Shown here: in pieces, positions 9,559-39,021 of the stretch | How the letters are laid out: the number at the start of each line of letters is the position of its first letter | Position numbering within the stretch: the stretch's first letter is position 1 | Assembly: GCF_010692395.1 (NCBI RefSeq) | Contig: NZ_JAAHHS010000023.1 | Location: 721-41,760 of the forward strand | Reading direction: 5' to 3' | DNA: 41,040 bases | Source of the DNA: Moorena sp. SIO3H5 | GTDB lineage: Bacteria > Cyanobacteriota > Cyanobacteriia > Cyanobacteriales > Coleofasciculaceae | Notes under the pieces: model-generated | The model's input: the letters and a program-made list of their open reading frames with translations, nothing else | The model's database searches: none | What the model was told of the DNA's origin: nothing | Translations under genes and position numbers: made by a program

Positions 9559-10398
9559 GTTGAGTGTCAACAGTTGCTCCCCCCATTACCCCCGAAGATC
9601 GGCAGAGCTGTTTCATTTTCGATTTAGACTTAGGGGGGCAGAGTAGCAGAGCAGCGGAGCCGAATTATCCGCAAATATTCGGTTTTGACAGAATTTATCC
9701 CTTTCTAATTCTCTATATCTAACCCTGAAATGAAGAAGCCGGGGGTAGTCAACACTCACCAGTAAACAAGGTATAGATAGCGTTTTATTGGTTCAAATTG
9801 AGCCATGTCCTTATTGTTGCCCAAGATTTTCCATCAATAAACATCTTGAACAAAAATTTTGCAAAATCTTTGCTGAATACCCACTCTGCTTTTATCACAT
9901 CTTTATTTCCCTGGCTGATAATTAATTATTCATGGCTGGTATCATCCATAGCTTATTTATCGGTAATGGTATATTTACCAGCCGCATTTGGTATAATTCG
10001 CTTCTGTAAAATTCGGTAAAAATATTTATTTTAATAAAAATTATAATTAGTAAGTAATTAAATAATATAGCCAAAATATTACGAAGTATGGATTACCATT
10101 AGGAATTATCATGATTATGATAGTTTTAATTAAAACTGACTTATAACACTTACTTGCTAATTGCTATTCTAATCAAAATAAAATTAGTCTTCGATTCAAT
10201 CGCGTATAATCCTAATATAGTATCGGTAAATCAAGTTATAAAATCGACAATTATTTTAGTAATAAGAATATAAAAAACTAGTCTCACTTGTTATAGATGT
10301 AATTTATATTTTTTTTAAAAACTGACCTCTAATATCTTTTTACTATTCCCTAACAAAAATTGACAATAATATCCGTTAATGCATCTGTCGGCGCGTGC

Positions 10399-18515: not shown

Positions 18516-19838
18516 GTGGATAAACAAACCATTGATTCAATTCAAAACCTCCGCTACCAAGCTGCATCGTTGCTAGTTTATCAGTCAGTCTTGAGTGAAG
18601 AGGTAGGTTTAGCTTTTTTGAAACTATTAGAAGCTATACTTAACAGGGATGTGGATAACATCAGTTGTTTAAAGGCTTATGGTGACTGGTTTCAAGGGTT
18701 AGCTAGCCAAAACCAAAGTTGGCACGATTATCTGTTTAGGCAAATCCTTAGGGCTGATAATTCTTTTACCAGGCAAGTGCAAGGTTCTGAATTAGAAACA
18801 TTACCGCCAGCATTAGTAGACGCGGCTCGTCATGACTTACAAGCTTTACAAAATATCTATAAGTGCAGCAGTAAACAACTTTGTAAGTGGGTCAAAAGAG
18901 CATCTGTTTTACCGGTTGAACTGGTGCCTTGGAATTGTGAGTCAAGTCAATCAAGGTCTGGGTCTGACCAGATTGATAAACGTACTCAATGGCACGCTGA
19001 TCTACAAGCTAAACTAAACAATTTAGACAATTGGGCTGATGGCTTGGAAGCGATCGCGGCATACTATCAAGAGTTTGGGACTGGACTTTTTGCTGACTAT
19101 CAAGGATTTCGTTGGCAATCGGGTCAGTTGTTTGGTATTGCCAATCCCGATCCGATTAGACTCAGTGAGCTGGTGGGCTATGAATTGGCGCGGACGCAAT
19201 TGCTCAAGAATACAGAGTTTCTGCTGAAAGGCTACCGAGCCCTGAATATATTACTTTACGGTAGTCGCGGTTCAGGTAAGTCTTCTTTGGTCAAGGCGTT
19301 GTTAAATGAATACGGTGAGCAGGGATTGCGAATTATTGAAGTCCCGAAATCAGAGATGATCGATTTACCGGTGATTACGGAGCAATTGCGAGACCAGCCT
19401 CAAAAATTTATTATCTTTATCGATGATTTATCCTTTGAAGAGGATAATGATTCCTACAAAGCTTTAAAGGTAATCTTGGAAGGGAATTTAACAGCACGAC
19501 CTGACAATGTTGTGGTTTACGCCACCTCTAATCGACGACACTTGATTCGAGAATTCTTTGATGACCGTCCCCGTCCTAGCAATGAAGAGATCCATGGTTG
19601 GGATACGGTTCACGAGAAACTTTCGTTTAGCGATCGCTTTGGCTTAACCCTAACCTTTGAGAAAGCTGACCAGAAAACCTACTTGAATATTGTCCAACAT
19701 CTAGCTACCCTAGCCCAAATCCCCCTTGAGCCTAGTGAAATCAGACCTCGTGCCTTACAGTGGGCGATCCGAGCCAATGGTTTCTCTGGTAGAACAGCAC
19801 GACAGTTTATTGATTTTTTACAAGCAGAGGAATGCTAA
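18516..19838 (+). CDS. DUF815-type AAA-like ATPase with ~220-aa uncharacterised N-terminal region
   Basis: 440 aa; P-loop LLYGSRGSGKSS, Walker B IIFIDDLSF, then YATSNRRHL. GTG start at 18516. Confidence 0.8.
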   Translation: MDKQTIDSIQNLRYQAASLLVYQSVLSEEVGLAFLKLLEAILNRDVDNISCLKAYGDWFQGLASQNQSWHDYLFRQILRADNSFTRQVQGSELETLPPALVDAARHDLQALQNIYKCSSKQLCKWVKRASVLPVELVPWNCESSQSRSGSDQIDKRTQWHADLQAKLNNLDNWADGLEAIAAYYQEFGTGLFADYQGFRWQSGQLFGIANPDPIRLSELVGYELARTQLLKNTEFLLKGYRALNILLYGSRGSGKSSLVKALLNEYGEQGLRIIEVPKSEMIDLPVITEQLRDQPQKFIIFIDDLSFEEDNDSYKALKVILEGNLTARPDNVVVYATSNRRHLIREFFDDRPRPSNEEIHGWDTVHEKLSFSDRFGLTLTFEKADQKTYLNIVQHLATLAQIPLEPSEIRPRALQWAIRANGFSGRTARQFIDFLQAEEC

Positions 19839-21028
19839 TTATCCATGGGAAACGCCCCTGGTCGCACGCTGATTAATTTGGTCTTACCGTTACGAAGCAC
19901 TTCCACCTCTAACTGGGCACCCACCTCTGAGGCTTCCACACCCTGCTGAACCTCAGTGGCATTTTTAACTGGTTTCGAACCAACGGTTTTAATGATATCT
20001 CCTGTTTTGAAACCAGCTCTCTGGGCGGGGGAGCCTGGCACCACCCGGACGATTAAAACCCCATCATCTTGGTTGACTTTCAGGTCAAAGTCTTGGTCTT
20101 GATTAATTTTTTCTCTCAACTCTGGGGTCAAGGTCACCATCTGAATGCCTAGGTAAGGATGCTCAACTTTACCTTTAGAAAATAGTTGATTAGCTATCCG
20201 TTCCGCAGTTTCCACGGGGATAGCAAACCCTAAGCCTTGGGCATTGGCTCGAATAGCGGTGTTAATCCCAACGACTTCACCAGTGGCATTCAACAACGGA
20301 CCACCGGAATTACCAGGGTTAATGGCGGCATCCGTTTGGATAAAGCTGACCCGTTTTTCAGGAACCCCGACTTGGGAACTGGAGCGCCCTAAGGCACTTA
20401 TGATACCGACCGTTACAGTATTATCTAAACCGAGGGGATTACCAATAGCGATCGCCCATTCTCCTGGGGTCAAATTCTCTGCTTTACCCAAGTTGACTGT
20501 GGGCAAGTCCGTTGCTTCAATTTTGACTACGGCTACATCGGTAACTGGGTCACTGCCCACGACTTGACCCTCAAAGCTGCGACCGTCTTTTAGAGTGACT
20601 TTAACTTCCTCTGTGCCTTCTACAACGTGGGCATTGGTAATCAAGCGTCCATCGGAGCTGAGGATAAATCCTGAGCCCGTGCCTTGCTCGATGCGCTGTT
20701 TTGGCATAGGCAGGTCATCCCCAAAAAAGCGCCTAAAGAAGGGATTGTGGAACGGTTGTGGGATATCCCGTGATACCTGACGGGCTGCATCGATTCTCAC
20801 CACTGCCGGACCTACTTTTTCTACCGCTTTAGCTATGAAATTGAGGTTTCTCTGGGGTGTAACACTTGATCGTTGTGGCGTGAATGGTTGTAATACTGCT
20901 GGAACGATTTGTGGGCGTCTGATTACCTCTTGCTCTGCCATGAGATAGCGACTACCCAAAACCCCTGCACCTCCGCCCAAGCCCAGCAATGTCAGATAAA
21001 CGGTCAGCTGCTTTAGGGATAAACTCAT
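19835..21028 (-). CDS. htrA: HtrA/DegP-family serine protease (trypsin-like domain + PDZ)
   Basis: 397 aa: N-terminal TM/signal, catalytic TNAHVV (His) and GNSGGPLL (Ser), C-terminal PDZ (GSPAQRAGFKTGDII). Confidence 0.9.
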   Translation of the reverse strand: MSLSLKQLTVYLTLLGLGGGAGVLGSRYLMAEQEVIRRPQIVPAVLQPFTPQRSSVTPQRNLNFIAKAVEKVGPAVVRIDAARQVSRDIPQPFHNPFFRRFFGDDLPMPKQRIEQGTGSGFILSSDGRLITNAHVVEGTEEVKVTLKDGRSFEGQVVGSDPVTDVAVVKIEATDLPTVNLGKAENLTPGEWAIAIGNPLGLDNTVTVGIISALGRSSSQVGVPEKRVSFIQTDAAINPGNSGGPLLNATGEVVGINTAIRANAQGLGFAIPVETAERIANQLFSKGKVEHPYLGIQMVTLTPELREKINQDQDFDLKVNQDDGVLIVRVVPGSPAQRAGFKTGDIIKTVGSKPVKNATEVQQGVEASEVGAQLEVEVLRNGKTKLISVRPGAFPMDN

Positions 21029-21383: not shown

Positions 21384-23702
21384 TTAGGTATTATTAAGGA
21401 TATCGTGCAAAATTTGGAGACTATTACGAAACTTTACAGTGTGAGGATGATCTGACCCTAACTTCTTTTCTGCAATCTCCAAAGCCTGGACATAGAGCGG
21501 TTCTGCCTGATGGTAAAGTCCCTGAGTATAGTAGAGTCGAGCCAGGTTGTGGAGACTGCTGGCCACATCGGGATGGTTGTGACCCAGCAGCTGCTTTGTC
21601 ATCTCCAAAGCTTGTTGATAGAGGGGTTCTGCCTGATAGTAGCGTCCCATTGACCAGTAGAGATTTGCCAGGTTGTTGAGACTGATGGCCACATCGGGAT
21701 GGTCTTGACCCAGCCGCTGCTTCAACAGCTCCAAAGCCTGTTGATAAAGGGGTTCGGCCTGGTGATAGCGCCCCATTGACCAGTAGAGTGCACCCAGGTT
21801 GTTGAGACTGGTGGCCACATGGGGATGGTGTTGACCCAGCCGCTGCTTTCTGATCTCCAAAGCCTGTTGATAAAGGGATTCGGTCTGGTCATAGCGCCCC
21901 ATTGACTTGTAGAGTGCACCCAGGTTGTTGAGACTGGTGGCCACACGGGGATGGTATTGACCCAGCCGCTGCTTTCTGATCTCCAAAGCCTGTTGAAAGA
22001 GGGGTTCGGCCTCATCATAGCGCCCCATTGACTGGTAGAGTAAACCCAGATTGTTGAGACTGGTAGCCACATCGGGATGGTTCTGACCCACCAGCTGCTT
22101 TCTGATCTCCAAAGCCTGTTGTAAGAGGGGTTCGGCCTCATCATAGTGCCCCATTGAATTGTAGAGTAAACCCAGATTGTTAAGACTGGTGGCCACATCG
22201 GGATGGTTCTGACCCAGCAGCTCCTTTCTGATCTCCAATGCCTTTTGAGAGAGGGGTTTGGCCTGGTCATAGCGCCCCATTAACCAGTAGAGTAAACCCA
22301 GGTTATTGAAACTTCGGGCTACATCGGTATGTTCCTCACCCAGGCGGCTTCTAGTTATCTCTAAACATTTCTCATACCAAGGTTCAGCCTGGTCATAGAT
22401 ACCTTGATCGTCATAGAATTTTCCTAAGACAGTTAAGAGGGATGGTAAATCTTCATCCCTGAGCCAGTTAGTTAGGACTGTGGCAGCTTCGGCTAAATGA
22501 GGGATGCTGAGATTAACTACTGCAATCTGATCTTGAGTTGGTGTCTCAGGAATTTCCTGGGCTACAGCCACCATTGCCTGACAAAAGCTTTGCTTGTAGC
22601 TATCGGCCTCTGGTAATTGATCGAGTTTGGTCTGGAAAAATTCTCGAATTAGTTGATGGACTTGATAGGTTTGTTTTTCGGTCAGTTTCAAGAGATTACG
22701 ATTGACCAGAAAGCGATCGCGTAATTCTTCTAATTCTTCTTGTTCTTCTTCCCATTCCTCCTCATCGTCCGTTTCGATAACACAAGACTCTACCAGTGAC
22801 CACTCAAAAGGAGCTTGAGCAAACAGACTCAGACGACATCCCAACTGCTGGGCTTCTGGAAAATCTTTCAAATCTTCCCAGGATAAGTCAAAGGCTGCTG
22901 CGACTCCCAACTGGGCTGTCACTTGCCCTTGTTCTTCTTGAGAAAGTAATGCCTTTGCTGCTAATTTCTTTTTCTCTAAACGTTTCTGAACTTTAGCAAT
23001 GGTTAAACTCGGATGTAGATCTAAATATCGTCCTACTAACTCCAAGCCCAAAGGTAAATAACCCAACCATTCACATAGGGCTTCTGCTTCGTTTAGTTCG
23101 TTATCAATGCGCTCTTTTCCAACAAGCGATCGCAATAATTCCAATGCTGCACCAGGTGCTGCTTTTGGCGAAAGTACATCCAAGTCAATTCGTTGGTACG
23201 AAGCTCCTGGACGCTGACGACTGGTAACCAGTACTTTGAAGCGGGATTGGGCTGGAGGCAAATAGGGTTCAATTTTATCTTTATAGTCCTTCCCGAAAGA
23301 AGGAACATCATCGAGCACAATCAATACTGTTCCTTCTGGCCAATTTCTCCAGCAGTGTTCTACCTGTTGTTCGTTTAACTTTAGTTTATCGGGAATGGTT
23401 AATCCTAATTTAGTACGGGCAAAACTGACAATCTGAGTCCCGAGATCTACACCGCGCACTGGAAACCAGCACAACCCACCAGGATACTTATCCTGATATC
23501 TAAGTGCATATTGTAGAGCTAACTCAGTTTTGCCCACACCACCCATTCCAGCAATGGCACAAATCACTAATCGATCCGTCTCTTGAAATTCCCGACGGAG
23601 CTGCTCAAGTTGATCTTCCCTACCAACAAAGTAGGGAGTGCCACGATTAATAATGTTACTGGGGGGATTTAACTTTGTCCGTTCCCGGTCGGACGACTCC
23701 AG
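21384..23702 (-). CDS. STAND NTPase: NB-ARC-type ATPase + ~8 TPR (42-aa, kinesin-light-chain-like) units. True N-terminus unresolved: no canonical start after an in-frame TAG
   Basis: P-loop GMGGVGKTELA, Walker B TVLIVLDDV, pre-P-loop FVGREDQLEQL. TPR units of pattern HPDVATSLNNLGLLY.SMGRYDEAEPL.QQALEIRKQ.LG, visible as 126-nt DNA repeats ~21440-22440. The frame is open from 23702 down, but the first ATG/GTG/TTG is GTG 23567, 7 codons before the P-loop. Confidence 0.85.
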   Translation of the reverse strand: MESSDRERTKLNPPSNIINRGTPYFVGREDQLEQLRREFQETDRLVICAIAGMGGVGKTELALQYALRYQDKYPGGLCWFPVRGVDLGTQIVSFARTKLGLTIPDKLKLNEQQVEHCWRNWPEGTVLIVLDDVPSFGKDYKDKIEPYLPPAQSRFKVLVTSRQRPGASYQRIDLDVLSPKAAPGAALELLRSLVGKERIDNELNEAEALCEWLGYLPLGLELVGRYLDLHPSLTIAKVQKRLEKKKLAAKALLSQEEQGQVTAQLGVAAAFDLSWEDLKDFPEAQQLGCRLSLFAQAPFEWSLVESCVIETDDEEEWEEEQEELEELRDRFLVNRNLLKLTEKQTYQVHQLIREFFQTKLDQLPEADSYKQSFCQAMVAVAQEIPETPTQDQIAVVNLSIPHLAEAATVLTNWLRDEDLPSLLTVLGKFYDDQGIYDQAEPWYEKCLEITRSRLGEEHTDVARSFNNLGLLYWLMGRYDQAKPLSQKALEIRKELLGQNHPDVATSLNNLGLLYNSMGHYDEAEPLLQQALEIRKQLVGQNHPDVATSLNNLGLLYQSMGRYDEAEPLFQQALEIRKQRLGQYHPRVATSLNNLGALYKSMGRYDQTESLYQQALEIRKQRLGQHHPHVATSLNNLGALYWSMGRYHQAEPLYQQALELLKQRLGQDHPDVAISLNNLANLYWSMGRYYQAEPLYQQALEMTKQLLGHNHPDVASSLHNLARLYYTQGLYHQAEPLYVQALEIAEKKLGSDHPHTVKFRNSLQILHDILNNT

Positions 23703-24143
23703 CTAATCAGACCCTTGATGAATATGTATCTCTTGACCAAAATAATTAGTACCACCCTCAATATTGTCAATATTGTTTTGTAAACCTTTACCGTTGTCAT
23801 TAACATTCATAGTCTTGCTGCTGTTGTCGTGTATCTTACCAGTATGAATTTCTTGAGCGATTGCCTGAATTTCTTTAGCAAACTCTGGTTGTTCATTCAT
23901 GATCACTTTCAAGTAATCAGCCACTCGTTCTAAATCACTCGAAGAGCCTTTTTCAACTGCCGTCAGAGCATTTTCAGCTTTATAATTATCCCGTAACTTG
24001 TCCCAGATCATTTTACGGAGTTCTTCCATCTTGGCGATTGCCGCTGTGGTGAAATGTTTGGCTAACTCCCCAGCTCCAGATTCCAGAAACTTCTTGAAAG
24101 CCAGAGTAGCGATCTCTGCTGCTGAAAGTATTGCTAGTGCCAT
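23703..24143 (-). CDS. 146-aa alpha-helical module, same frame as and contiguous with the NB-ARC/TPR ORF (probable detached N-terminal domain)
   Basis: MALAILSAAEIATLAFKKFLESGAGELAKHF... ends in a G/N/Q-rich tail NVNDNGKGLQNNIDNIEGGTNYFGQEIHIHQGSD, then TAG (23705-23703). I did not recognise a family by eye. Confidence 0.6.
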   Translation of the reverse strand: MALAILSAAEIATLAFKKFLESGAGELAKHFTTAAIAKMEELRKMIWDKLRDNYKAENALTAVEKGSSSDLERVADYLKVIMNEQPEFAKEIQAIAQEIHTGKIHDNSSKTMNVNDNGKGLQNNIDNIEGGTNYFGQEIHIHQGSD

Positions 24144-24830: not shown

Positions 24831-25085
24831 ATGACTGAAGAGTTTATCCCAAACGAAAACAACAATCCTGAAGAGATTACTCCCGCTAATACTCCTCAGG
24901 AACCTTCTCCAAAAAAATACCCAGTTAAGCACATTCTGACAGGATCACGTAAAGCCATAATAAAGACAATGCAAACCCTATATGCGCTGCGTTACGCGGA
25001 AATCTCCGAGTGGAGCCCCCTTCAGCCCACTGGCATCCCAGGAGAATTCATCACCATAATGACCAAATACCTGATTATCGATTAA
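24831..25085 (+). CDS. Hypothetical 84-aa protein (acidic/Pro-rich N-terminus, compact C-terminal domain)
   Basis: ATG ORF with an upstream promoter-like motif and a downstream GC hairpin. The C-terminal part HILTGSRKAIIKTMQTLYALRYAEISEWSPLQPTGIPGEFITIM looks like a folded domain. Family not recognised. Confidence 0.5.
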   Translation: MTEEFIPNENNNPEEITPANTPQEPSPKKYPVKHILTGSRKAIIKTMQTLYALRYAEISEWSPLQPTGIPGEFITIMTKYLIID

Positions 25086-25355: not shown

Positions 25356-25450
25356 GTAGAATCCAGACGGTAGAATCCAGACGGTAGAATCCAGACAGTA
25401 TAATTCTCAATTCTCAATTCTTAATTCTTAATTCTTAATTCTTAATTCTC
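25356..25450. repeat. 14-mer (GTAGAATCCAGACG)x3 followed by heptamers (AATTCTC/AATTCTT)
   Basis: Counted directly. The heptamer array supplies the last codons and the stop of the 76-aa ORF. Confidence 0.9.
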
Positions 25451-25665
25451 CCTGTTTCGTTTACTCGATAAGCTTTAGCGGAAGCTCTCAACCAAATGAA
25501 TGCTCCGGTAGCAAATGGAATTAGTAGGAAAAGAGTACCAAATGTCAGGGGATGTTCTCTGACATAGGAGCTGTAAACCATCACTGCTATTGCTGAGCCA
25601 CAATAAATTAATCCACATAGGGGAATAGCAATCACTAGTAAAGCAAATTTAGTATCTTTATCCAT
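25435..25665 (-). CDS. Hypothetical 76-aa two-TM membrane protein
   Basis: Two hydrophobic helices (FALLVIAIPLCGLIYCGSAIAVMVY; TFGTLFLLIPFATGAFIWL). No RBS seen. Confidence 0.4.
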   Translation of the reverse strand: MDKDTKFALLVIAIPLCGLIYCGSAIAVMVYSSYVREHPLTFGTLFLLIPFATGAFIWLRASAKAYRVNETGRIKN

Positions 25666-25757: not shown

Positions 25758-26120
25758 TCATTGTTCTAGCTTTTTAATAAGAGCAATAATCATTCGACTT
25801 TCTTCTTTAAGTAAAGAAACAATTACTTCTATATCTGTTTGCTTAGATAAGCCTACTCTAGAAGATAAAATAAGATGTGTTTCTAATTCGTTAATTGAGC
25901 CTTGGGCAATATTAAGAAATCTGATGTACTCAGCGGTTGACCTTCTCCCATATCCTTCTGCTATGTTAGCCGGAATAGATACCGCAGCTCTCCTAATTTG
26001 TTGAACCATACCATATAATTCGTCTTTAGGGAAAAATTTAGTTAATAAATAACACTTTTCGGCTATATCCATGCCTTTTTGCCAAATTATTAAGTCTTTA
26101 AAATTATTAATATATGACAT
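25758..26120 (-). CDS. Four-helix-bundle protein (23S rRNA intervening-sequence protein family)
   Basis: 120 aa; FKDLIIWQKGMDIA, RRAAVSIPANIAEGYGR, FLNIAQGSINELETHL match the family signature as I know it. The gene is AT-rich (17/60 G+C in line 25801). Confidence 0.85.
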   Translation of the reverse strand: MSYINNFKDLIIWQKGMDIAEKCYLLTKFFPKDELYGMVQQIRRAAVSIPANIAEGYGRRSTAEYIRFLNIAQGSINELETHLILSSRVGLSKQTDIEVIVSLLKEESRMIIALIKKLEQ

Positions 26121-28550: not shown

Positions 28551-29189
28551 TCAACGACGAAATAAGCGTAAAATTATCCACATTACCAGAGTAGCGATCG
28601 CACCAGTGAGAATACTCCAGGCAAAAGCTGGTGTCATCATAAAGATAGTATTATTTTCAGGGGGTTGTTGTTTAACTAGGACAGTCGCAGTAATGCTACT
28701 GGTTGCTACTCCCACGCCAGCCAGAGCAATGCTTTGGTGTAAGCTACGATTACTCTGGGTTTGGTAAGTTTGGGTCATGCCATCTACTGTCCGAATCATA
28801 TTTTCTAGTAAGGTTAAACCAGACTTTAATCTGCCATGCTCCATCTCCACTTGTTGCAGATATTGGCTAGCTGCTAAATCCCTAAATTCTTCGAGAATGT
28901 GCCAATCACCCCGTTGATCAACCTGTTTTAGTTTAGTCAATCGTTGTTGGTAATGTTCGATATTGGTTTTAATGGTTTGGGCTTGGGAATCGAGAATACC
29001 TAAATTAGTAGCATAACGAGACAATAGAGTGAGGTTATTGCTTAGTATTTCTCGTAACTTTACTGTATTTTGAGATAACATACTGATCTCAGCAATACTA
29101 GTGTTAACTGAAACTAGATCAGCTTTCAATTCTGCTAGTGGTGTGTTAATTTCACCATAAGCCCAAAGAATTTTGTTACGATAATACAA
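28551..29189 (-). CDS. Hypothetical coiled-coil protein with two C-terminal TM helices, overlapping the kinase gene by 14 nt
   Basis: 212 aa. The only canonical start is TTG 29189. Long helical/coiled region, then SIALAGVGVATSSITATVLV and AFAWSILTGAIATLVMWIILRLF. Family not recognised. Confidence 0.5.
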   Translation of the reverse strand: MYYRNKILWAYGEINTPLAELKADLVSVNTSIAEISMLSQNTVKLREILSNNLTLLSRYATNLGILDSQAQTIKTNIEHYQQRLTKLKQVDQRGDWHILEEFRDLAASQYLQQVEMEHGRLKSGLTLLENMIRTVDGMTQTYQTQSNRSLHQSIALAGVGVATSSITATVLVKQQPPENNTIFMMTPAFAWSILTGAIATLVMWIILRLFRR

Positions 29190-30618
29190 TAGGTAAATTA
29201 AATCTATATAAATGCCAGTAATGGTGTCTATTATAGAGGCTATAACAACGACCCCAATGAGCTTCTGCTAAATTTGAGTTGCTTGCGATCGCTTTTTCGT
29301 AAGTCATCAGTGCTTGCTGGTATTTTTCTGCTTGCCGCAAGCTATCCCCTTGGCTGTTTAATTCTATTGCAGTTGGTTGTGTTTCCGGGTCGGATGGCGA
29401 TTTCGCAGCTGATTCGGTATCCGATTCGGGAATAGTTTTTTGGACTGAGCTGGTAGTAGTACTTTCAGGGGTGTTGCTAACTACGGCTGGGGTTGCAGGT
29501 TTTGACTCAGAGCTGGTGGTCGAACTTTCGGCAACGGTATCGCTAATGTTATCAGTAATGTTGTCAGTTTGAGTGACAGGTTTGGGAACTAGAAAAGTCT
29601 TAGTAGCGATCACAGAAATACCGATACCCATCCCTGCTAAGACAGTAATCATCAACCAAGGCTTCATTAACCATCTTCGGATGATCTCTGATCTGGCCTG
29701 GGTTTGTGCTGATGTTGCTGAAAAAGAAACAGTCTCTTCCGGAACTGTAGCAGACATAGCTATTGTTGGTGCAGCAGTTAGCCTCTGAACTGCTGCCAAC
29801 GCTTCTACTGCCGTCGGGTAGCGGTCACGGAAATCATAGCGCACCATACAGTCGAGGATATCCGCTAATTCTGAGTTAACTTGGGTGTTAAGTTGGATGC
29901 GATTGCGCCAGTTGATTTCCCCTGTTTCGGAGTTTTCTTTTAGTAACTTGGGATGAATTCCGGTTAATGCCTGGATACCTACCATCCCCACCGCATAGAT
30001 ATCGCTGCTAAAACGGGGATTGCCACCGAACTGTTCTTTGGGGGTGTAGCCATAACTGCCAATCGCAATGGTTTTGGTTTGCCCCGTTTCGGGATCGATA
30101 ATCTGGGTGCTAGCTTGCTTAACTGCCCCAAAGTCAATCATGACTATTCTATTATCCTTGCGGCGGCGAATCAGGTTTGGGGGTTTGATATCACGATGGA
30201 TCACACGTTGCTCATGGACAAATACTAGGACTTGTAGGATGTCTTGCAACAGAGCAATCACTCGATTTGATTCCCAAGGCTGACTGATTTCTTGGTTGAG
30301 GGGTTGTCCATCAATAAATTCTTGGGCCAGATAAAACTCGTGATTTTCCTCAAAATGCGCCAGCAACTGGGGGATCTGATCGTGGGTACCCAGCTGGTAG
30401 AGGACTTGGGCTTCTCGCTCAAATAGGCCTTTGGAAATTTCCAAACACTCAGGATCCGTCACCTGAGGTTTGAGCTGTTTAATCACACATTGGGGAGTTC
30501 CTGGCAAGTGCAAGTCCTGTGCCAGAAACGTTTCACCAAAGCCACCTGCTCCCAGCTTGCTGATAATTTTGTAGCGACCGCCTAAGGGCTTTGCGGAATT
30601 TAGCAGTTCATTGTTCAT
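29176..30618 (-). CDS. Hanks-type Ser/Thr protein kinase with TM helix, S/T/P-rich region and a truncated TPR-like C-terminus
   Basis: 480 aa; GAGGFGETF (G-loop), VIKQL (Lys), HRDIKPPNL, DFG, GSYGYTPKEQ. TM segment WLMITVLAGMGIGISVIA. Confidence 0.9.
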   Translation of the reverse strand: MNNELLNSAKPLGGRYKIISKLGAGGFGETFLAQDLHLPGTPQCVIKQLKPQVTDPECLEISKGLFEREAQVLYQLGTHDQIPQLLAHFEENHEFYLAQEFIDGQPLNQEISQPWESNRVIALLQDILQVLVFVHEQRVIHRDIKPPNLIRRRKDNRIVMIDFGAVKQASTQIIDPETGQTKTIAIGSYGYTPKEQFGGNPRFSSDIYAVGMVGIQALTGIHPKLLKENSETGEINWRNRIQLNTQVNSELADILDCMVRYDFRDRYPTAVEALAAVQRLTAAPTIAMSATVPEETVSFSATSAQTQARSEIIRRWLMKPWLMITVLAGMGIGISVIATKTFLVPKPVTQTDNITDNISDTVAESSTTSSESKPATPAVVSNTPESTTTSSVQKTIPESDTESAAKSPSDPETQPTAIELNSQGDSLRQAEKYQQALMTYEKAIASNSNLAEAHWGRCYSLYNRHHYWHLYRFNLPIVLS

Positions 30619-35940: not shown

Positions 35941-38900
35941 TTACTCTTCAAACTCCTTAATTGTTTTCATGTATTTTTTTGATGCTCCTTCAGATAATTG
36001 AAGTCTTTGTTCTTTTTTAATGCGAAAATATTCATTATAAACTTCCTGACTTTCTTTCTGCTCAAGTAAATAATCATAAGGACCTTTACCAGACAAAAGT
36101 TTAACTAATATAGGTGAGATTTCAATAGTGACGAATAAGGCAGTTATTAGCCAATTAATATTACGAATATTCGGATCGTCTTTAGATAACTCTTCTAAAG
36201 CAACAAGACGAGCTAAGAAGCCATAGGATTTTTTGTCAATTTTTTCTTGATTCAGTTGTTCTAAGTTACTCTCTGGTGACTGCAAAATAAGATTACGTTC
36301 TTTAAGCTTATCTATTTTATCCTCTTTCTCCTTAACTTTATTATCTAATTCAATAAATTTTTGTTTGATCTCATCTGCATAGTTTCGTTTGTCTTGATAA
36401 ACAATTCCTTTTCCAAGTTGGCCTGTTCCCTGTGTACCTTCTGCTTCTGCATTAGCCGCATATTCTGCATTTTGCCATTCATTTTTGTACTTATTTTTTT
36501 CTATATTTAAGGCTTGAATTTCTTGCTCTAGGTCTTTTATTGGTTCGGTAAGTTCTTCTTTGGATAGTTCATTTTTATCTTGTTCTATTTTCTGGTTAAT
36601 TTCTTTTTCAAAGAGCCTCAACTCAAGGGGTTTAGCAACCACAAAGCTTAACAATAATGCTATTAACAATCGAAGACTTGTTGCTGCAATAAATGGCAAA
36701 TTTAAATTTAAGTCCGTTTCTTTTCTCTTAGAGCTTAAAATTAAAAAACGATCTAAGTTAAAAACTATAAAACTCCAAAACGTTCCTCCTAGACAAGAAG
36801 CTGCTACAGAACCAAATACTGTAAAAAGAGCATAACCACCGGAAAAAATAGCCGTTGTTGATGTTAGCAGAACCGTGGTACCAATTGCTGTATATTTATA
36901 TCGTTCTGTCAAACATTCTTTTTGTGCCAAAATGTGATGATCTGCACCAGCACACCATAGCAAAAATTTTTCTAGTGAATTTAAATTATCGTTAATTGTT
37001 GGAGTCTGTATTAGGTGTTGAAGTTCAGCTGGTAAGCCAATTTCGTTTATAAAAGTACCAACCCCTTCAACACCATAAGTATTCAGAGCACTTTTGATAT
37101 ATTCTGTAGCTCTTTCCTGAATTTGCTCCCGTTGTTGTAAGAAGTCTAAAGCATTATAGTCTTGAGCGGAATTACGGAAGTAATTACCAACCATCGATGC
37201 TAAGACCCTATTCACAAGGTTTTTAATAGAGCTATATTTAACCGCACCCTTAGACAAGGGGCTAAGAACTCCTCCTTCTTCCTCAACTTGCTGAAAACTA
37301 TGAGCATTTGGTGAACCCACACGAGAGATCATTTTAGGAGAATTGTTGGGAGCAATATTAATAACCTGGGTGACTTCAAGATTCAAAATAAAGCCATCTT
37401 TTGAGCGAAGCTTTAATGTGTTCAAATTAGAATCATAGTTGGTTGCTGGTTTATCTCTATTCGTCCAGTCCAAAGTTATTTCATGGGCAGGAACTATTAC
37501 TATATTTTTAACTCTTGTATTGATAGGATGTGTTCCCGCTTCTATTGGTATGTTTTGAATCCCTTTATACCCAATTGGAACGATATTAAACTGAGAACCA
37601 TAAGTATTTTGCTCTTGATTGGCGTGGCTATTCTTACCAACATTGGAGATTAAAACTCCAACTGTTCCAGTTTTAATATTAGTTAAAGGAACTTGTTCAA
37701 CTTCCACAAACCAAGGATTTAAACTCCAAAAACCTTCTTCGATAAATTCTTCTTGTAAACCTCGATAGCCACTTTTGTCAATAAACTCCTGTGGCTCCTG
37801 AAACTTATTATGTCCCTCAATAACTGGTCCTGCAATCTCCCCTCTTGGTAAGGGCTTACCATCAAAAGTAGTAACAATACCAATTTTACCTGATTCAACT
37901 CTGTAAACTTTTAATTGTTCTGGTTTCAGTCCATATTGCTTGGCATTGTCAGTAGTAACTACTGTAAATATTTCAGTGTTTATTCTATAGGAACCTTCAG
38001 TAAGAATTGTGCGCTGTTTACCTTGTTGACCACCGTTGTTGACAAAGGCTTCAGCATTCTGAAAATTATCGCAATCTACAGCTTTACCTAGTATTTGTCC
38101 TGGTGGTAGTTCAGCACCATCTTGAGCAATAACTAGCCCTATCTCCCCTGAGCGAATATTAATTACTGGGACATTATTAACTTTAAACAACTCTGTATTA
38201 ATGTAGTGAGTTCCAGGAGGAATAATTCCTAATTGGTTCCCTTGTTGACCGCCGTTTTTGATAAATGCTTCAGCGTCCTGAAAAGTGTCACATTCAACAA
38301 CTTTACCAAAGTTCTGACCAAGTGGAAGTGGCTGACCATCCCTTGCTTCCACTAACCCTACTTCATTAACTCCAATTTTGATAAGTTCAACTCTCTTAAT
38401 TTTGAAAAGTTCTGTATTAATTGCGTATTTGCCAGTAGTAATAATCTTTAACTGTTGTCCCCTATATCCCCCATTATCAATAAATGCTTGAGCGTCTTCA
38501 AAATTGTTGCATTCAACAGCATCACCAAAGGTTTTTCCAATCGGAAGTGGCTTGCCATCTTTCGCTTCTACTAAGCCAATTTCATAGTCATTAATATGAA
38601 TAATTTTCCTGATTTCAACAGAAAAAAGTTGAGTATTAATCCGATAAATACCATTTCTTAAAATGCCTAACTGCCTACCCCGTTGACCACCATTTTTGAT
38701 AAAAGCACGACCATCTTGAAAGTCATCACATTCTTCGATAACTTTCCCAAAAATTTTACCTGTGGCAAGAGAAGCACCATCGTTGGCGGTTACTAATCCA
38801 ATTTCATCTTTATCAATATGTATAGCCATTTGTTTAACAACTTTATAGCTCAAAGGAGAGTGGAAATGTCTTCCAGGACCAAGAGTATCAACCTGCCAAC

Positions 38901-39021
38901 CCATTTCTCCATTAAGAGCGATTTGACGATTAGATGGTAAAGGACTACCAAACTTTTTATAGACAATTCCAACCTCATCTTGAGAGATTACATAAACGCC
39001 AGGTGCCCGATCAATTGCCAT
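35941..39021 (-). CDS. 1026-aa fusion protein: seven tandem beta-rich modules + SPFH/band-7-like core + DUF4407-like membrane and coiled-coil domain
   Basis: ATG 39021 with GGAG 8 nt upstream. Modules each open with E[IV]G[IL]V at residues 16, 73, 147, 220, 293, 379, 453. SPFH-like segment KDGFILNLEVTQVINI...YIKSALNTYGVEGVGTFINEIGLP. DUF4407-like LLWCAGADHHIL...YKYTAIG...FWSFIVFNLDRFLI plus a K/E coiled coil at residues ~800-930. Low G+C (12-23 per 60-nt line in five sampled lines). Confidence 0.85.
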   Translation of the reverse strand: MAIDRAPGVYVISQDEVGIVYKKFGSPLPSNRQIALNGEMGWQVDTLGPGRHFHSPLSYKVVKQMAIHIDKDEIGLVTANDGASLATGKIFGKVIEECDDFQDGRAFIKNGGQRGRQLGILRNGIYRINTQLFSVEIRKIIHINDYEIGLVEAKDGKPLPIGKTFGDAVECNNFEDAQAFIDNGGYRGQQLKIITTGKYAINTELFKIKRVELIKIGVNEVGLVEARDGQPLPLGQNFGKVVECDTFQDAEAFIKNGGQQGNQLGIIPPGTHYINTELFKVNNVPVINIRSGEIGLVIAQDGAELPPGQILGKAVDCDNFQNAEAFVNNGGQQGKQRTILTEGSYRINTEIFTVVTTDNAKQYGLKPEQLKVYRVESGKIGIVTTFDGKPLPRGEIAGPVIEGHNKFQEPQEFIDKSGYRGLQEEFIEEGFWSLNPWFVEVEQVPLTNIKTGTVGVLISNVGKNSHANQEQNTYGSQFNIVPIGYKGIQNIPIEAGTHPINTRVKNIVIVPAHEITLDWTNRDKPATNYDSNLNTLKLRSKDGFILNLEVTQVINIAPNNSPKMISRVGSPNAHSFQQVEEEGGVLSPLSKGAVKYSSIKNLVNRVLASMVGNYFRNSAQDYNALDFLQQREQIQERATEYIKSALNTYGVEGVGTFINEIGLPAELQHLIQTPTINDNLNSLEKFLLWCAGADHHILAQKECLTERYKYTAIGTTVLLTSTTAIFSGGYALFTVFGSVAASCLGGTFWSFIVFNLDRFLILSSKRKETDLNLNLPFIAATSLRLLIALLLSFVVAKPLELRLFEKEINQKIEQDKNELSKEELTEPIKDLEQEIQALNIEKNKYKNEWQNAEYAANAEAEGTQGTGQLGKGIVYQDKRNYADEIKQKFIELDNKVKEKEDKIDKLKERNLILQSPESNLEQLNQEKIDKKSYGFLARLVALEELSKDDPNIRNINWLITALFVTIEISPILVKLLSGKGPYDYLLEQKESQEVYNEYFRIKKEQRLQLSEGASKKYMKTIKEFEE

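Follow-up and report, generated by a model that had tools for sequence, protein, structure and literature searches.

A stretch of 41,040 nucleotides (nt) from the cyanobacterium Moorena sp. SIO3H5 (contig NZ_JAAHHS010000023.1, positions 721 to 41,760; called the window hereafter) carries on its minus strand a gene for a small protein and, directly downstream and in the same reading frame, the coding sequence of a large protein of the NOD-like receptor (NLR) type. The two are separated by a single TAG, and the downstream frame opens without any canonical start codon. This raises the question of how the NLR part is translated and whether the stop codon is a lesion or a working part of the locus. 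A stop in this position was found to be conserved at 105 loci, and it is followed, after a short spacer, by a conserved pseudoknot. Judging from these comparisons of sequences, programmed stop-codon readthrough is quite likely the best explanation of the junction.

Architecture of the junction

The features of the locus, in positions of the window, are the following.

23703..24143, minus strand: open reading frame (ORF) of the effector, the predicted major product of 146 amino acids (aa), with its TAG (ORF calling and lengths of homologues)
24143-23829, minus strand: helical N-module, about residues 1-105 (AlphaFold2 (AF2) model), followed by a disordered G/N/Q-rich tail
23718..23807, minus strand: tail motif NVNDNGKGLQNNIDNIEGGTNYFGQEIHIH, residues about 113-142 (alignment)
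23703..23705, minus strand: in-frame stop codon TAG, the proposed recoding site (a stop of any type at 105 loci), with C as the +4 base
23695..23702, minus strand: 8-nt spacer CTGGAGTC (consensus CTNNAGTC) that separates stop and pseudoknot (alignment)
23664..23694, minus strand: H-type pseudoknot with stems S1 and S2 (covariation, pattern hits and permutation of S2)
23568..23702, minus strand: start-less stretch of 45 sense codons without ATG, GTG or TTG (translation)
22959..23618, minus strand: NB-ARC NTPase domain (PF00931), with the P-loop GMGGVGKT at 23549-23526
21468..22454, minus strand: C-terminal TPR array of about 8 TPR_10/TPR_12 units, the presumed sensor (Pfam, NCBIfam)
21384..24143, minus strand: whole conceptual readthrough product of 146 + 1 + 772 = 919 residues, comprising effector, motif, linker, NB-ARC and TPR

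The 146-aa ORF runs from its ATG at 24143 to the TAG at 23705-23703, in front of which the protein ends with ...IHIHQGSD. Beyond the TAG the frame continues for 772 sense codons (23702..21387) up to a TAA at 21386-21384, with the translation LESSDRERTKLNPPSNIINRGTPYFVGREDQLEQLRREFQETDRL-V-ICAIAGMGGVGKTELA, and no terminator lies between the effector ORF and the NLR frame. The valine of this translation corresponds to GTG 23567, the first ATG, GTG or TTG past the TAG, which is codon 46 after the stop and lies 6 codons before the P-loop. The match of the post-TAG translation to NB-ARC (E 5.7e-12, residues 29-248) starts 17 residues upstream of this GTG; the start-less stretch encodes the pseudoknot peptide LESSDRERTKLNPP as well as the conserved FVGRE..LEQL opening of the NB-ARC domain. 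C-terminal of NB-ARC there are 8 TPR_10/TPR_12 repeats (Pfam: TPR_12 E 5e-126, TPR_10 E 2e-111), and the downstream part matches the NCBIfam model FxSxx_TPR-like with 317.8 bits. By these matches the downstream part is classified as a STAND NTPase with NB-ARC, TPR and a Walker A motif. In PADLOC no Avs model matched; the hits were confined to a generic TPR model and, weakly, to PDC.

An earlier account of this DNA, made without database searches (the sequence-only reading), had described the 146-aa ORF, its continuation in the same frame, the lack of ATG, GTG or TTG before GTG 23567, the position of the FVGRE segment within the start-less stretch and a STAND NTPase with NB-ARC and TPR. ORF calling, translation and the Pfam matches bear out each of these statements. 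It gave 7 codons for the distance between the GTG and the P-loop, which is 6 codons here, and the Avs-type architecture that it assumed has no counterpart among the PADLOC results. Its picture of the stop, the frame and the start-less stretch was thus right, and the conserved pseudoknot 8 nt past the stop was missed.

Another ORF of 182 aa (21722-22270, minus strand) lies in a different frame inside the TPR array. Its translation is repetitive (WRSESS.WV.TIPMWPPVSTIWV...), and most likely it is no gene but arises incidentally from the tandem TPR repeats.

Conservation of the stop codon

Three orthologous Moorena loci (L158, L159 and L160) from separate assemblies, with N-modules that are 85-88% identical, keep the TAG and a near-identical downstream sequence. 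The sequence-only reading had suggested that orthologues be searched for a sense codon at 23703-23705; all three have TAG there. The codon matching GTG 23567 is GCA in L159 and L160, so this GTG is not a conserved start.

A broader set consisted of 80 fetched genome loci, each encoding a relative of the N-module. In about 25 of them the small ORF ends in a stop that is followed directly by a long open frame in the same phase. This post-stop frame opens with the conserved peptide L(E/Q/K)S(S/P)..ER(T/A)K.NP, and the first canonical start is met 30-52 codons past the stop. The carriers include Scytonema/Tolypothrix, Fischerella, Mastigocoleus, Rivularia, Richelia, Xenococcus, Symplocastrum, Leptolyngbyales and Coleofasciculaceae among others, which we take, assigning taxonomy by genus, to span several cyanobacterial orders.

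Over the 105 instances, which also comprise loci from metagenomes (see below), the stop is TGA in 84, TAG in 19 and TAA in 2. In 93 of the 105 no further stop follows for at least 200 codons or before the contig ends. A canonical start is first met at a median of 37 codons past the stop (93 loci), with a range of 0 to 79, and just 2 loci have one within 10 codons. When related pairs are compared over codons 18-41 past the stop, their differences are distributed as 132/104/241 over codon positions 1/2/3; this excess at the third position is a coding signature in frame 0. Close relatives may differ in nothing but the type of stop: the window has TAG where L111 has TGA, and L030 has TGA where L073 has TAA. 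All 81 matches of the covariance model built for the signal carry a stop. The recurrence of an in-frame stop together with a start-less frame at 105 loci puts the arrangement far beyond chance, and on this comparative evidence the stop is judged to be kept by selection, not by accident.

Frames of 1-198 codons past the stop occur at L033, L113, L011, L005, L069, L082, L086, L105, L117, L120, L141 and L143, in part without a Pfam domain (L033, 154 aa; L011, 140 aa); these twelve loci may be decayed copies or short readthrough extensions. On several contigs two stop/pseudoknot copies stand a few kb apart (L082 at 3995 and 9639, L096 at 6321 and 10399, L153 at 5177 and 8104), and L017 has a second such site at 10150, which suggests clusters of effector-NLR units.

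The pseudoknot downstream of the stop

The signal consists of the stop, the 8-nt spacer CTNNAGTC, a hairpin S1 of 5 base pairs (bp; GTCCG-N8-CGGAC), the A-rich segment AAAGTTAAA and TCCC. In the window GTCCG (23694-23690) pairs with CGGAC (23681-23677) to form S1, while GGGA (23686-23683), situated inside the loop of S1, pairs with TCCC (23667-23664) to form S2; the A-rich loop AAAGTTAAA (23676-23668) lies between the S1 and S2 strands. The spacer measures 8 nt in the instances examined, and in alignment A2 conservation reaches 90-100% at A17, G18 and C20. A set of 26 sites that was seeded by protein and not by a pattern (25 genome loci and the window) has C as the +4 base in 24. The GGAG of the spacer was considered as a conserved Shine-Dalgarno-like site and rejected, as it is present in a subset of loci only (CTGGAGTC versus CTACAGTC or CTAAAGTC).

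Both stems are preserved by compensatory changes. The variants of S1 are GCCCG/CGGGC, GTCAG/CTGAC, GTCGG/CCGAC, GTCTG/CAGAC and GGCGG/CCGCC, plus forms with G-U wobbles; those of S2, beside GGGA/TCCC, are CGGC/GCCG, CGGA/TCCG, GCGA/TCGC, AGGC/GCCT, GGGT/ACCC, CGGCA/TGCCG and GGGG/CCCC. The pair types in S1 are UA51/CG20/UG5/GC1 and CG43/GC18/UG10/UA5, and the G-U pairs are compatible with RNA of the sense strand only. The compensatory changes swap encoded residues (Ser to Pro together with Thr to Ala), which means that the RNA is constrained and not the peptide.

In an ungapped alignment of the 26 sites 82.9% of the cells are paired versus 72.8% after shuffling, with a covariation of 0.268 versus 0.130 (observed value attained by 0/500 shuffles). 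For 80 distinct model-aligned sites the corresponding values are 89.2% versus 79.2% and 0.278 versus 0.110 (0/500), and registers slid along this alignment give at most 48% pairing. The alignments misregister two subgroups, namely the L030 type (9-nt loop) and the GGCA type (11-nt L3); because of these loop-length differences of 1-2 nt the reported pairing percentages are conservative. In a register-aware permutation of S2, 0/2000 controls attained the observed value. Within the window the covariance model matches only once, at 23651-23714. Rfam 15, which includes the preQ1-type pseudoknot riboswitches, has no match at the signal (E up to 10) or across the window.

The signal in metagenomes

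The signal was also sought independently of the N-module, by scanning metagenome contigs with the pattern TRR-CTNNAGTCG-NCNG-NNNN-GG-N(2,3)-CNGNC-AAAG. It retrieved 77 loci, in which TRR is TGA (62), TAG (14) or TAA (1); TGG, which the pattern admitted, occurs in 0 of the 77. The two S1 positions left free by the pattern pair in all 77 hits (55 distinct signals). Upstream of the signal lie mostly helical modules of 123-160 aa that open with MEP.T..AIA...KA.EK and bear various G/N/Q-rich tails, and further a TIR_2 protein (E 3.8e-16) and alpha/beta-hydrolases. The in-frame modules downstream comprise several NB-ARC+TPR types, NB-ARC+APAF1_C, NACHT and a protein kinase. Effectors and sensors are thus both modular around the same signal. 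A phage origin of the element was considered as well and ruled out, since the pattern has no hits in viral contigs.

The effector module and its tail

The 146-aa module has 72 word-indexed homologues, every one a stand-alone protein of 97-163 aa (Moorena, Oscillatoria, Leptolyngbya, Nodularia and other cyanobacteria), and a search with a hidden Markov model (HMM) of the N-module gave 528 matches, mostly of about 140 aa. The AF2 model, calculated from a 30-sequence alignment, has helices at residues 8-21, 33-50, 54-64, 69-84 and 86-105, and a tail with a predicted local distance difference test (pLDDT) score below 50. Nothing above noise was found for the N-module in Pfam, NCBIfam and PADLOC; Foldseek of the model against the PDB gave no match with E <2, and a profile search of PDB sequences returned designed helical repeats only. 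The UniRef label 'NACHT-NTPase and P-loop...' on homologue P0064 was discarded, as Pfam did not reproduce it. The N-module, which the sequence-only reading had failed to recognise and held to be possibly undescribed, has indeed no relative in these databases and is predicted to represent an undescribed helical family with a G/N/Q-rich tail. Its likeness to HeLo and Bell is one of architecture only, and an assignment to HeLo, Bell or MLKL would be tentative.

The tail motif of the window, NVNDNGKGLQNNIDNIEGGTNYFGQEIHIH, is the form that the family motif N.DNA[KR]GWQTKVEGGTAYIGEIHI takes at this locus. By analogy it is a candidate amyloid-like signalling motif of the BASS (bacterial amyloid signalling sequence) type.

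Two-gene relatives and natural fusions

At other loci of the N-module family effector and NLR are two separate genes. There the NLR has its own ATG (in Nostoc, 11 nt past the stop) and a copy of the effector tail, as illustrated by the effector motif NQDNAKGWQTKVEGGTVYQGEINIH and the NLR opening MNQSNQDNAKGWQTQVEGGTVYQGDI...; further two-gene loci have matched variant motifs, or a helical domain plus motif, at the start of the NLR. The copy was scored by Smith-Waterman alignment of the 40 C-terminal aa of the effector with the 120 aa that open the downstream part. Among the two-gene loci the median score is 91 and the lowest 40 (n=39). Among the signal-bearing loci including the window the median is 20.5, and the highest score, 30, is at background level (n=86). 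The relative frame of effector and NLR is mixed in the two-gene class and always 0 in the signal class. Since the NLR of the signal class has neither a start codon nor a motif copy, both would come only from readthrough.

Stop-less fusions of the order N-module-motif-NB-ARC-TPR were found by the HMM search (P0103, 957 aa; P0111, 967 aa). At L161:1948-2010 (P0089) GAG stands in the stop position (CAT GAG CTG AAG TCA TCG GGA GGG GTT CCG ACA AAG), the first S1 pair is broken (A-C), and the product is one 393-aa protein made of N-module, motif, linker and a GUN4 domain. This GAG is the only sense variant found at the stop position. From P0103, P0111 and P0089 it follows that the fused architecture is viable and that a sense codon at the stop position is rare.

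In the two-gene Nostoc loci L008-L034 the sequence from the effector stop onwards is TGA ATTGAGCC ATC ATG..., and its 8 nt past the stop resemble the spacer CTGGAGTC. The linker of the Nostoc two-gene NLR, QLQSSPPNNIPYRG, is similar to the signal-bearing linker minus the pseudoknot-encoded DRERTKLN. These similarities hint that the two-gene and the signal architectures interconvert.

Neighbouring genes

Directly downstream of the NLR lies a gene for an HtrA-like serine protease (Trypsin_2 + PDZ; 19835-21028, minus strand), which is syntenic in M. producens L158. Its end is overlapped by 4 nt by the convergent gene of a DUF815 AAA ATPase (18516-19838, plus strand). Upstream of the effector gene a 120-aa four-helix-bundle protein of the 23S_rRNA_IVP family is encoded (25758-26120, minus strand; PF05635, E 2e-38), and between the two genes there are a hydrophobic 76-aa ORF (25435-25665, minus strand) and a conserved 84-aa ORF (24831-25085, plus strand). 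Elsewhere the window contains a Ser/Thr protein kinase with C-terminal TPR (29176-30618, minus strand) and a 1026-aa SPFH/Band 7 + DUF4407 protein (35941-39021, minus strand). In Moorea sp. SIO1F2 the orthologous effector-NLR locus is flanked by an IS605 OrfB / Cas12f-like TnpB gene (L159:7216-8436, minus strand).

Alternative explanations of the junction

Besides readthrough, the junction could be used for termination followed by reinitiation: the pseudoknot would hold the ribosome or its 30S subunit, and translation would restart at a nearby non-canonical codon, giving a separate NLR without effector or motif. Past the stop the first codon is often CTG, which can serve bacteria as a weak start and at which the sequence-only reading had placed a possible restart; in L160 one annotation pipeline starts the downstream gene at the base directly past the stop, and Bell/NLR pairs are commonly coupled via very short gaps or overlaps (Dyrka et al. 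preprint). However, the codon in question is CTA in 37 instances and in others CTC, CTT, CCG, CCA or GTA, none of which is a start, and there is neither a conserved Shine-Dalgarno-like element nor a start at a fixed position. With the next codon in the P site the pseudoknot would moreover be placed inside the mRNA channel and would need to be melted. The resulting NLR would lack the motif that every two-gene NLR has, and the GAG variant together with the stop-less fusions shows that continuous reading is used. Reinitiation is therefore an unlikely explanation, and restart at the CTG of the window in particular.

Translation from an internal canonical start, here GTG 23567, is improbable to a still greater degree. 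In that case the pseudoknot would be a riboswitch, a thermosensor or an RNase site in the leader of the NLR gene, and the shared frame a relic of an ancestral fusion. Gene callers do annotate such starts, and a promoter-like match (TTGACA-17-AATTAT, 10/12; 23770-23742, minus strand) lies within the effector ORF towards its 3' end, 37 nt before the TAG. The hexamers fall into tail codons and are not conserved at other loci; the match is probably due to chance. The internal start is further opposed by the stop-to-start distance, which varies from 0 to 79 codons, by GCA in place of the GTG in L159 and L160, by the NB-ARC match and the conserved FVGR..L motif upstream of such starts, by the absence of stops from the stretch in 93 of 105 loci and its third-position bias, and by the lack of a riboswitch match in Rfam.

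Recoding by a special tRNA, with the structure acting in the manner of a selenocysteine insertion sequence (SECIS; selenocysteine at UGA) or a pyrrolysine insertion sequence (PYLIS; pyrrolysine at UAG), is very improbable. In its favour are the predominance of UGA (84 of 105) and the nature of bacterial SECIS elements, which are hairpins directly 3' of the UGA. Against this, the same pseudoknot accompanies TAG (in the window) and TAA, and between close relatives the type of stop may be the sole difference; Rfam gives no SECIS match, the site belongs to a disordered linker without catalytic role, and no tRNA gene is present in the window.

A lone in-frame stop without restart does look like a fresh nonsense mutation, as the sequence-only reading had proposed along with a sequencing error, and 12 of the 105 related loci look decayed downstream; but a one-off mutation, an error or a pseudogene has next to no probability left, as the TAG is common to the three Moorena orthologues from separate assemblies, about 100 more loci keep a stop that switches type and essentially never becomes a sense codon, and the downstream frame of 772 codons is intact. 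Frameshifting was rejected, both alternative frames closing within about 15 codons and no slippery site being present. Comparative evidence thus favours the other proposal of the sequence-only reading, namely bypass of the stop.

Comparison with known signals and systems

Structure-stimulated readthrough of stop codons is textbook biology for retroviruses and plant viruses. The proposed signal is similar in layout to that of murine leukemia virus (MuLV) gag-pol: in both cases an in-frame stop lies between an abundant upstream product and a rare C-terminally extended one, both predicted in the cyanobacterial case, and is followed by an 8-nt spacer, whose sequence itself is conserved, and an H-type pseudoknot. 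A review describes the MuLV readthrough signal as a pseudoknot preceded by an 8-nt spacer, ranks UGA as the leakiest stop, and names C at +4 and UGA-CUA as contexts that favour leakiness (PMC7026636). The predominance of UGA, the C at +4, the UGA-CUA context and the 8-nt spacer with pseudoknot mean that geometry and context of the cyanobacterial signal match known readthrough signals. It differs from the MuLV signal in its bacterial host with release factors RF1 and RF2 instead of eRF1, in the use of mostly UGA-C instead of UAG-G, in the much smaller pseudoknot (5 + 4 bp) without sequence or Rfam relationship, and in its location in immune-like cellular genes and not viral ones.

In size the pseudoknot belongs with the luteovirus-type pseudoknots of beet western yellows virus and pea enation mosaic virus (BWYV/PEMV), which have a 5-bp S1, an S2 of 3-4 bp, an L1 of 1-3 nt, one base at the junction and an A-rich loop, 7-9 nt long, which is able to occupy the minor groove of S1. 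The window signal may be written in the same way as GTCCG-ACC-GGGA-A-CGGAC-AAAGTTAAA-TCCC. The BWYV/PEMV elements, in contrast, stimulate -1 frameshifting at a slippery heptamer, and the cyanobacterial junction has no slippery site.

On bacterial ribosomes near-cognate decoding of a stop, giving a minor extended protein, is a feature that the proposed readthrough would share with the Q-beta coat to A1 extension and with B. subtilis SacB. We know of no dedicated downstream pseudoknot in these two cases, and unlike them the cyanobacterial signal is a family-wide cassette that hundreds of genes have conserved.

The proteins themselves resemble the Bell/BASS-NLR pairs, in which a small effector (a helical domain of about 100 aa, TIR or alpha/beta-hydrolase) with a short C-terminal G/N/Q-rich motif is encoded directly upstream of and collinear with an NB-ARC/NACHT + TPR/WD gene, with an enrichment in filamentous cyanobacteria (Dyrka et al. 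2020 preprint). One such pair, Bab/Agp, provides antiphage abortive infection in E. coli (2024 preprint). The two-gene relatives of the window locus carry the defining paired motif (39 loci). The NLR of the window differs in having neither motif copy nor start codon, so it would have escaped a motif-pair screen, and the link proposed here is translational and not one between two polypeptides. The predicted 919-aa product has the same effector-NOD-repeat architecture as all-in-one NLRs (P0103, P0111, fungal HeLo-NACHT and plant CC-NB-LRR), but unlike these the signal-bearing mRNA would also give an excess of free effector.

Discussion

Several points weigh against readthrough and against the roles assigned to its products. 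The literature search found no natural structure-stimulated readthrough in bacteria, and B. subtilis SacB is the only bacterial readthrough example in a review of recoding (PMC7026636). The stems are short (5 + 4 bp), and antagonism of RF1/RF2 by so small a pseudoknot is putative. Single-sequence minimum free energy folding of the junction is unremarkable (z 0.65), by a method that cannot model pseudoknots; the comparison of sequences decided the matter in its place. Downstream frames are short in 12 of the 105 instances, some of which may have decayed or serve another role. Many instances are related, and the metagenome set was retrieved by a pattern with part of the signal fixed; because of this kinship and the partly fixed pattern the counts do not represent independent events. 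For the N-module AF2 gave a weak model (pLDDT 57.7), which has no fold match. By analogy with known systems the helical module may be an effector and its tail may be amyloid.

Readthrough nevertheless accounts best for the junction. The computations show the conserved stop, the coding frame that continues in phase without a start, the covarying pseudoknot at constant spacing, the modularity of effectors and sensors, and the logic of the motifs; from these features we infer ribosomal readthrough, a ratio of products, amyloid templating and a phenotype in the following manner. Most ribosomes would terminate at the TAG and release the 146-aa effector with its G/N/Q-rich tail. With the stop in the A site the pseudoknot would be positioned at the mRNA entry channel, and a minority of ribosomes would insert a near-cognate amino acid at the stop and continue in frame, producing the 919-aa tripartite NLR of effector module, tail motif, NB-ARC and TPR. 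One mRNA would in this way give a fixed, high ratio of effector to sensor. The TPRs presumably sense phage or non-self, upon which the rare fusion would oligomerise through NB-ARC; once oligomerised, the fusion would bring its motifs together and recruit the plentiful free effector or act as a template for it, in the manner of amyloid-signalling Bell/BASS-NLR pairs, and the outcome would be cell death or abortive infection.

On balance the signal would seem to be a natural pseudoknot-dependent readthrough cassette in cellular bacterial genes, a cyanobacterial 'translational joint' that sets the effector-to-sensor ratio of NLR-type systems for immunity or cell death. Viruses that infect eukaryotes are known to have signals of this kind; a conserved and modular cassette of the kind in bacterial genes, coupling effectors to NLRs, appears to be new, and full-text searches of the literature found no description of readthrough or of a pseudoknot at cyanobacterial NLR loci. 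With a length of about 45 nt and more than 100 loci, the signal would offer a bacterial model for the competition of a pseudoknot with RF1/RF2, and possibly a portable element for fixed-ratio expression of two products in synthetic biology. Gene callers systematically mis-annotate the signal-bearing NLRs, giving them truncated N-termini and arbitrary starts, and screens for motif pairs miss them.

If the proposed mechanism is true, the cassette takes the place that a second gene and a duplicated amyloid motif have in the classical Bell/BASS-NLR pairs, and the frequency of readthrough could be tuned by RF2 activity, temperature or infection state, which would make it a translational rheostat on a suicide system. 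It would represent a third genetic architecture for effector/NLR systems, beside the two-gene amyloid pairs and the all-in-one NLRs, linking both designs and predicting how the stoichiometry of sensor and executioner is set.

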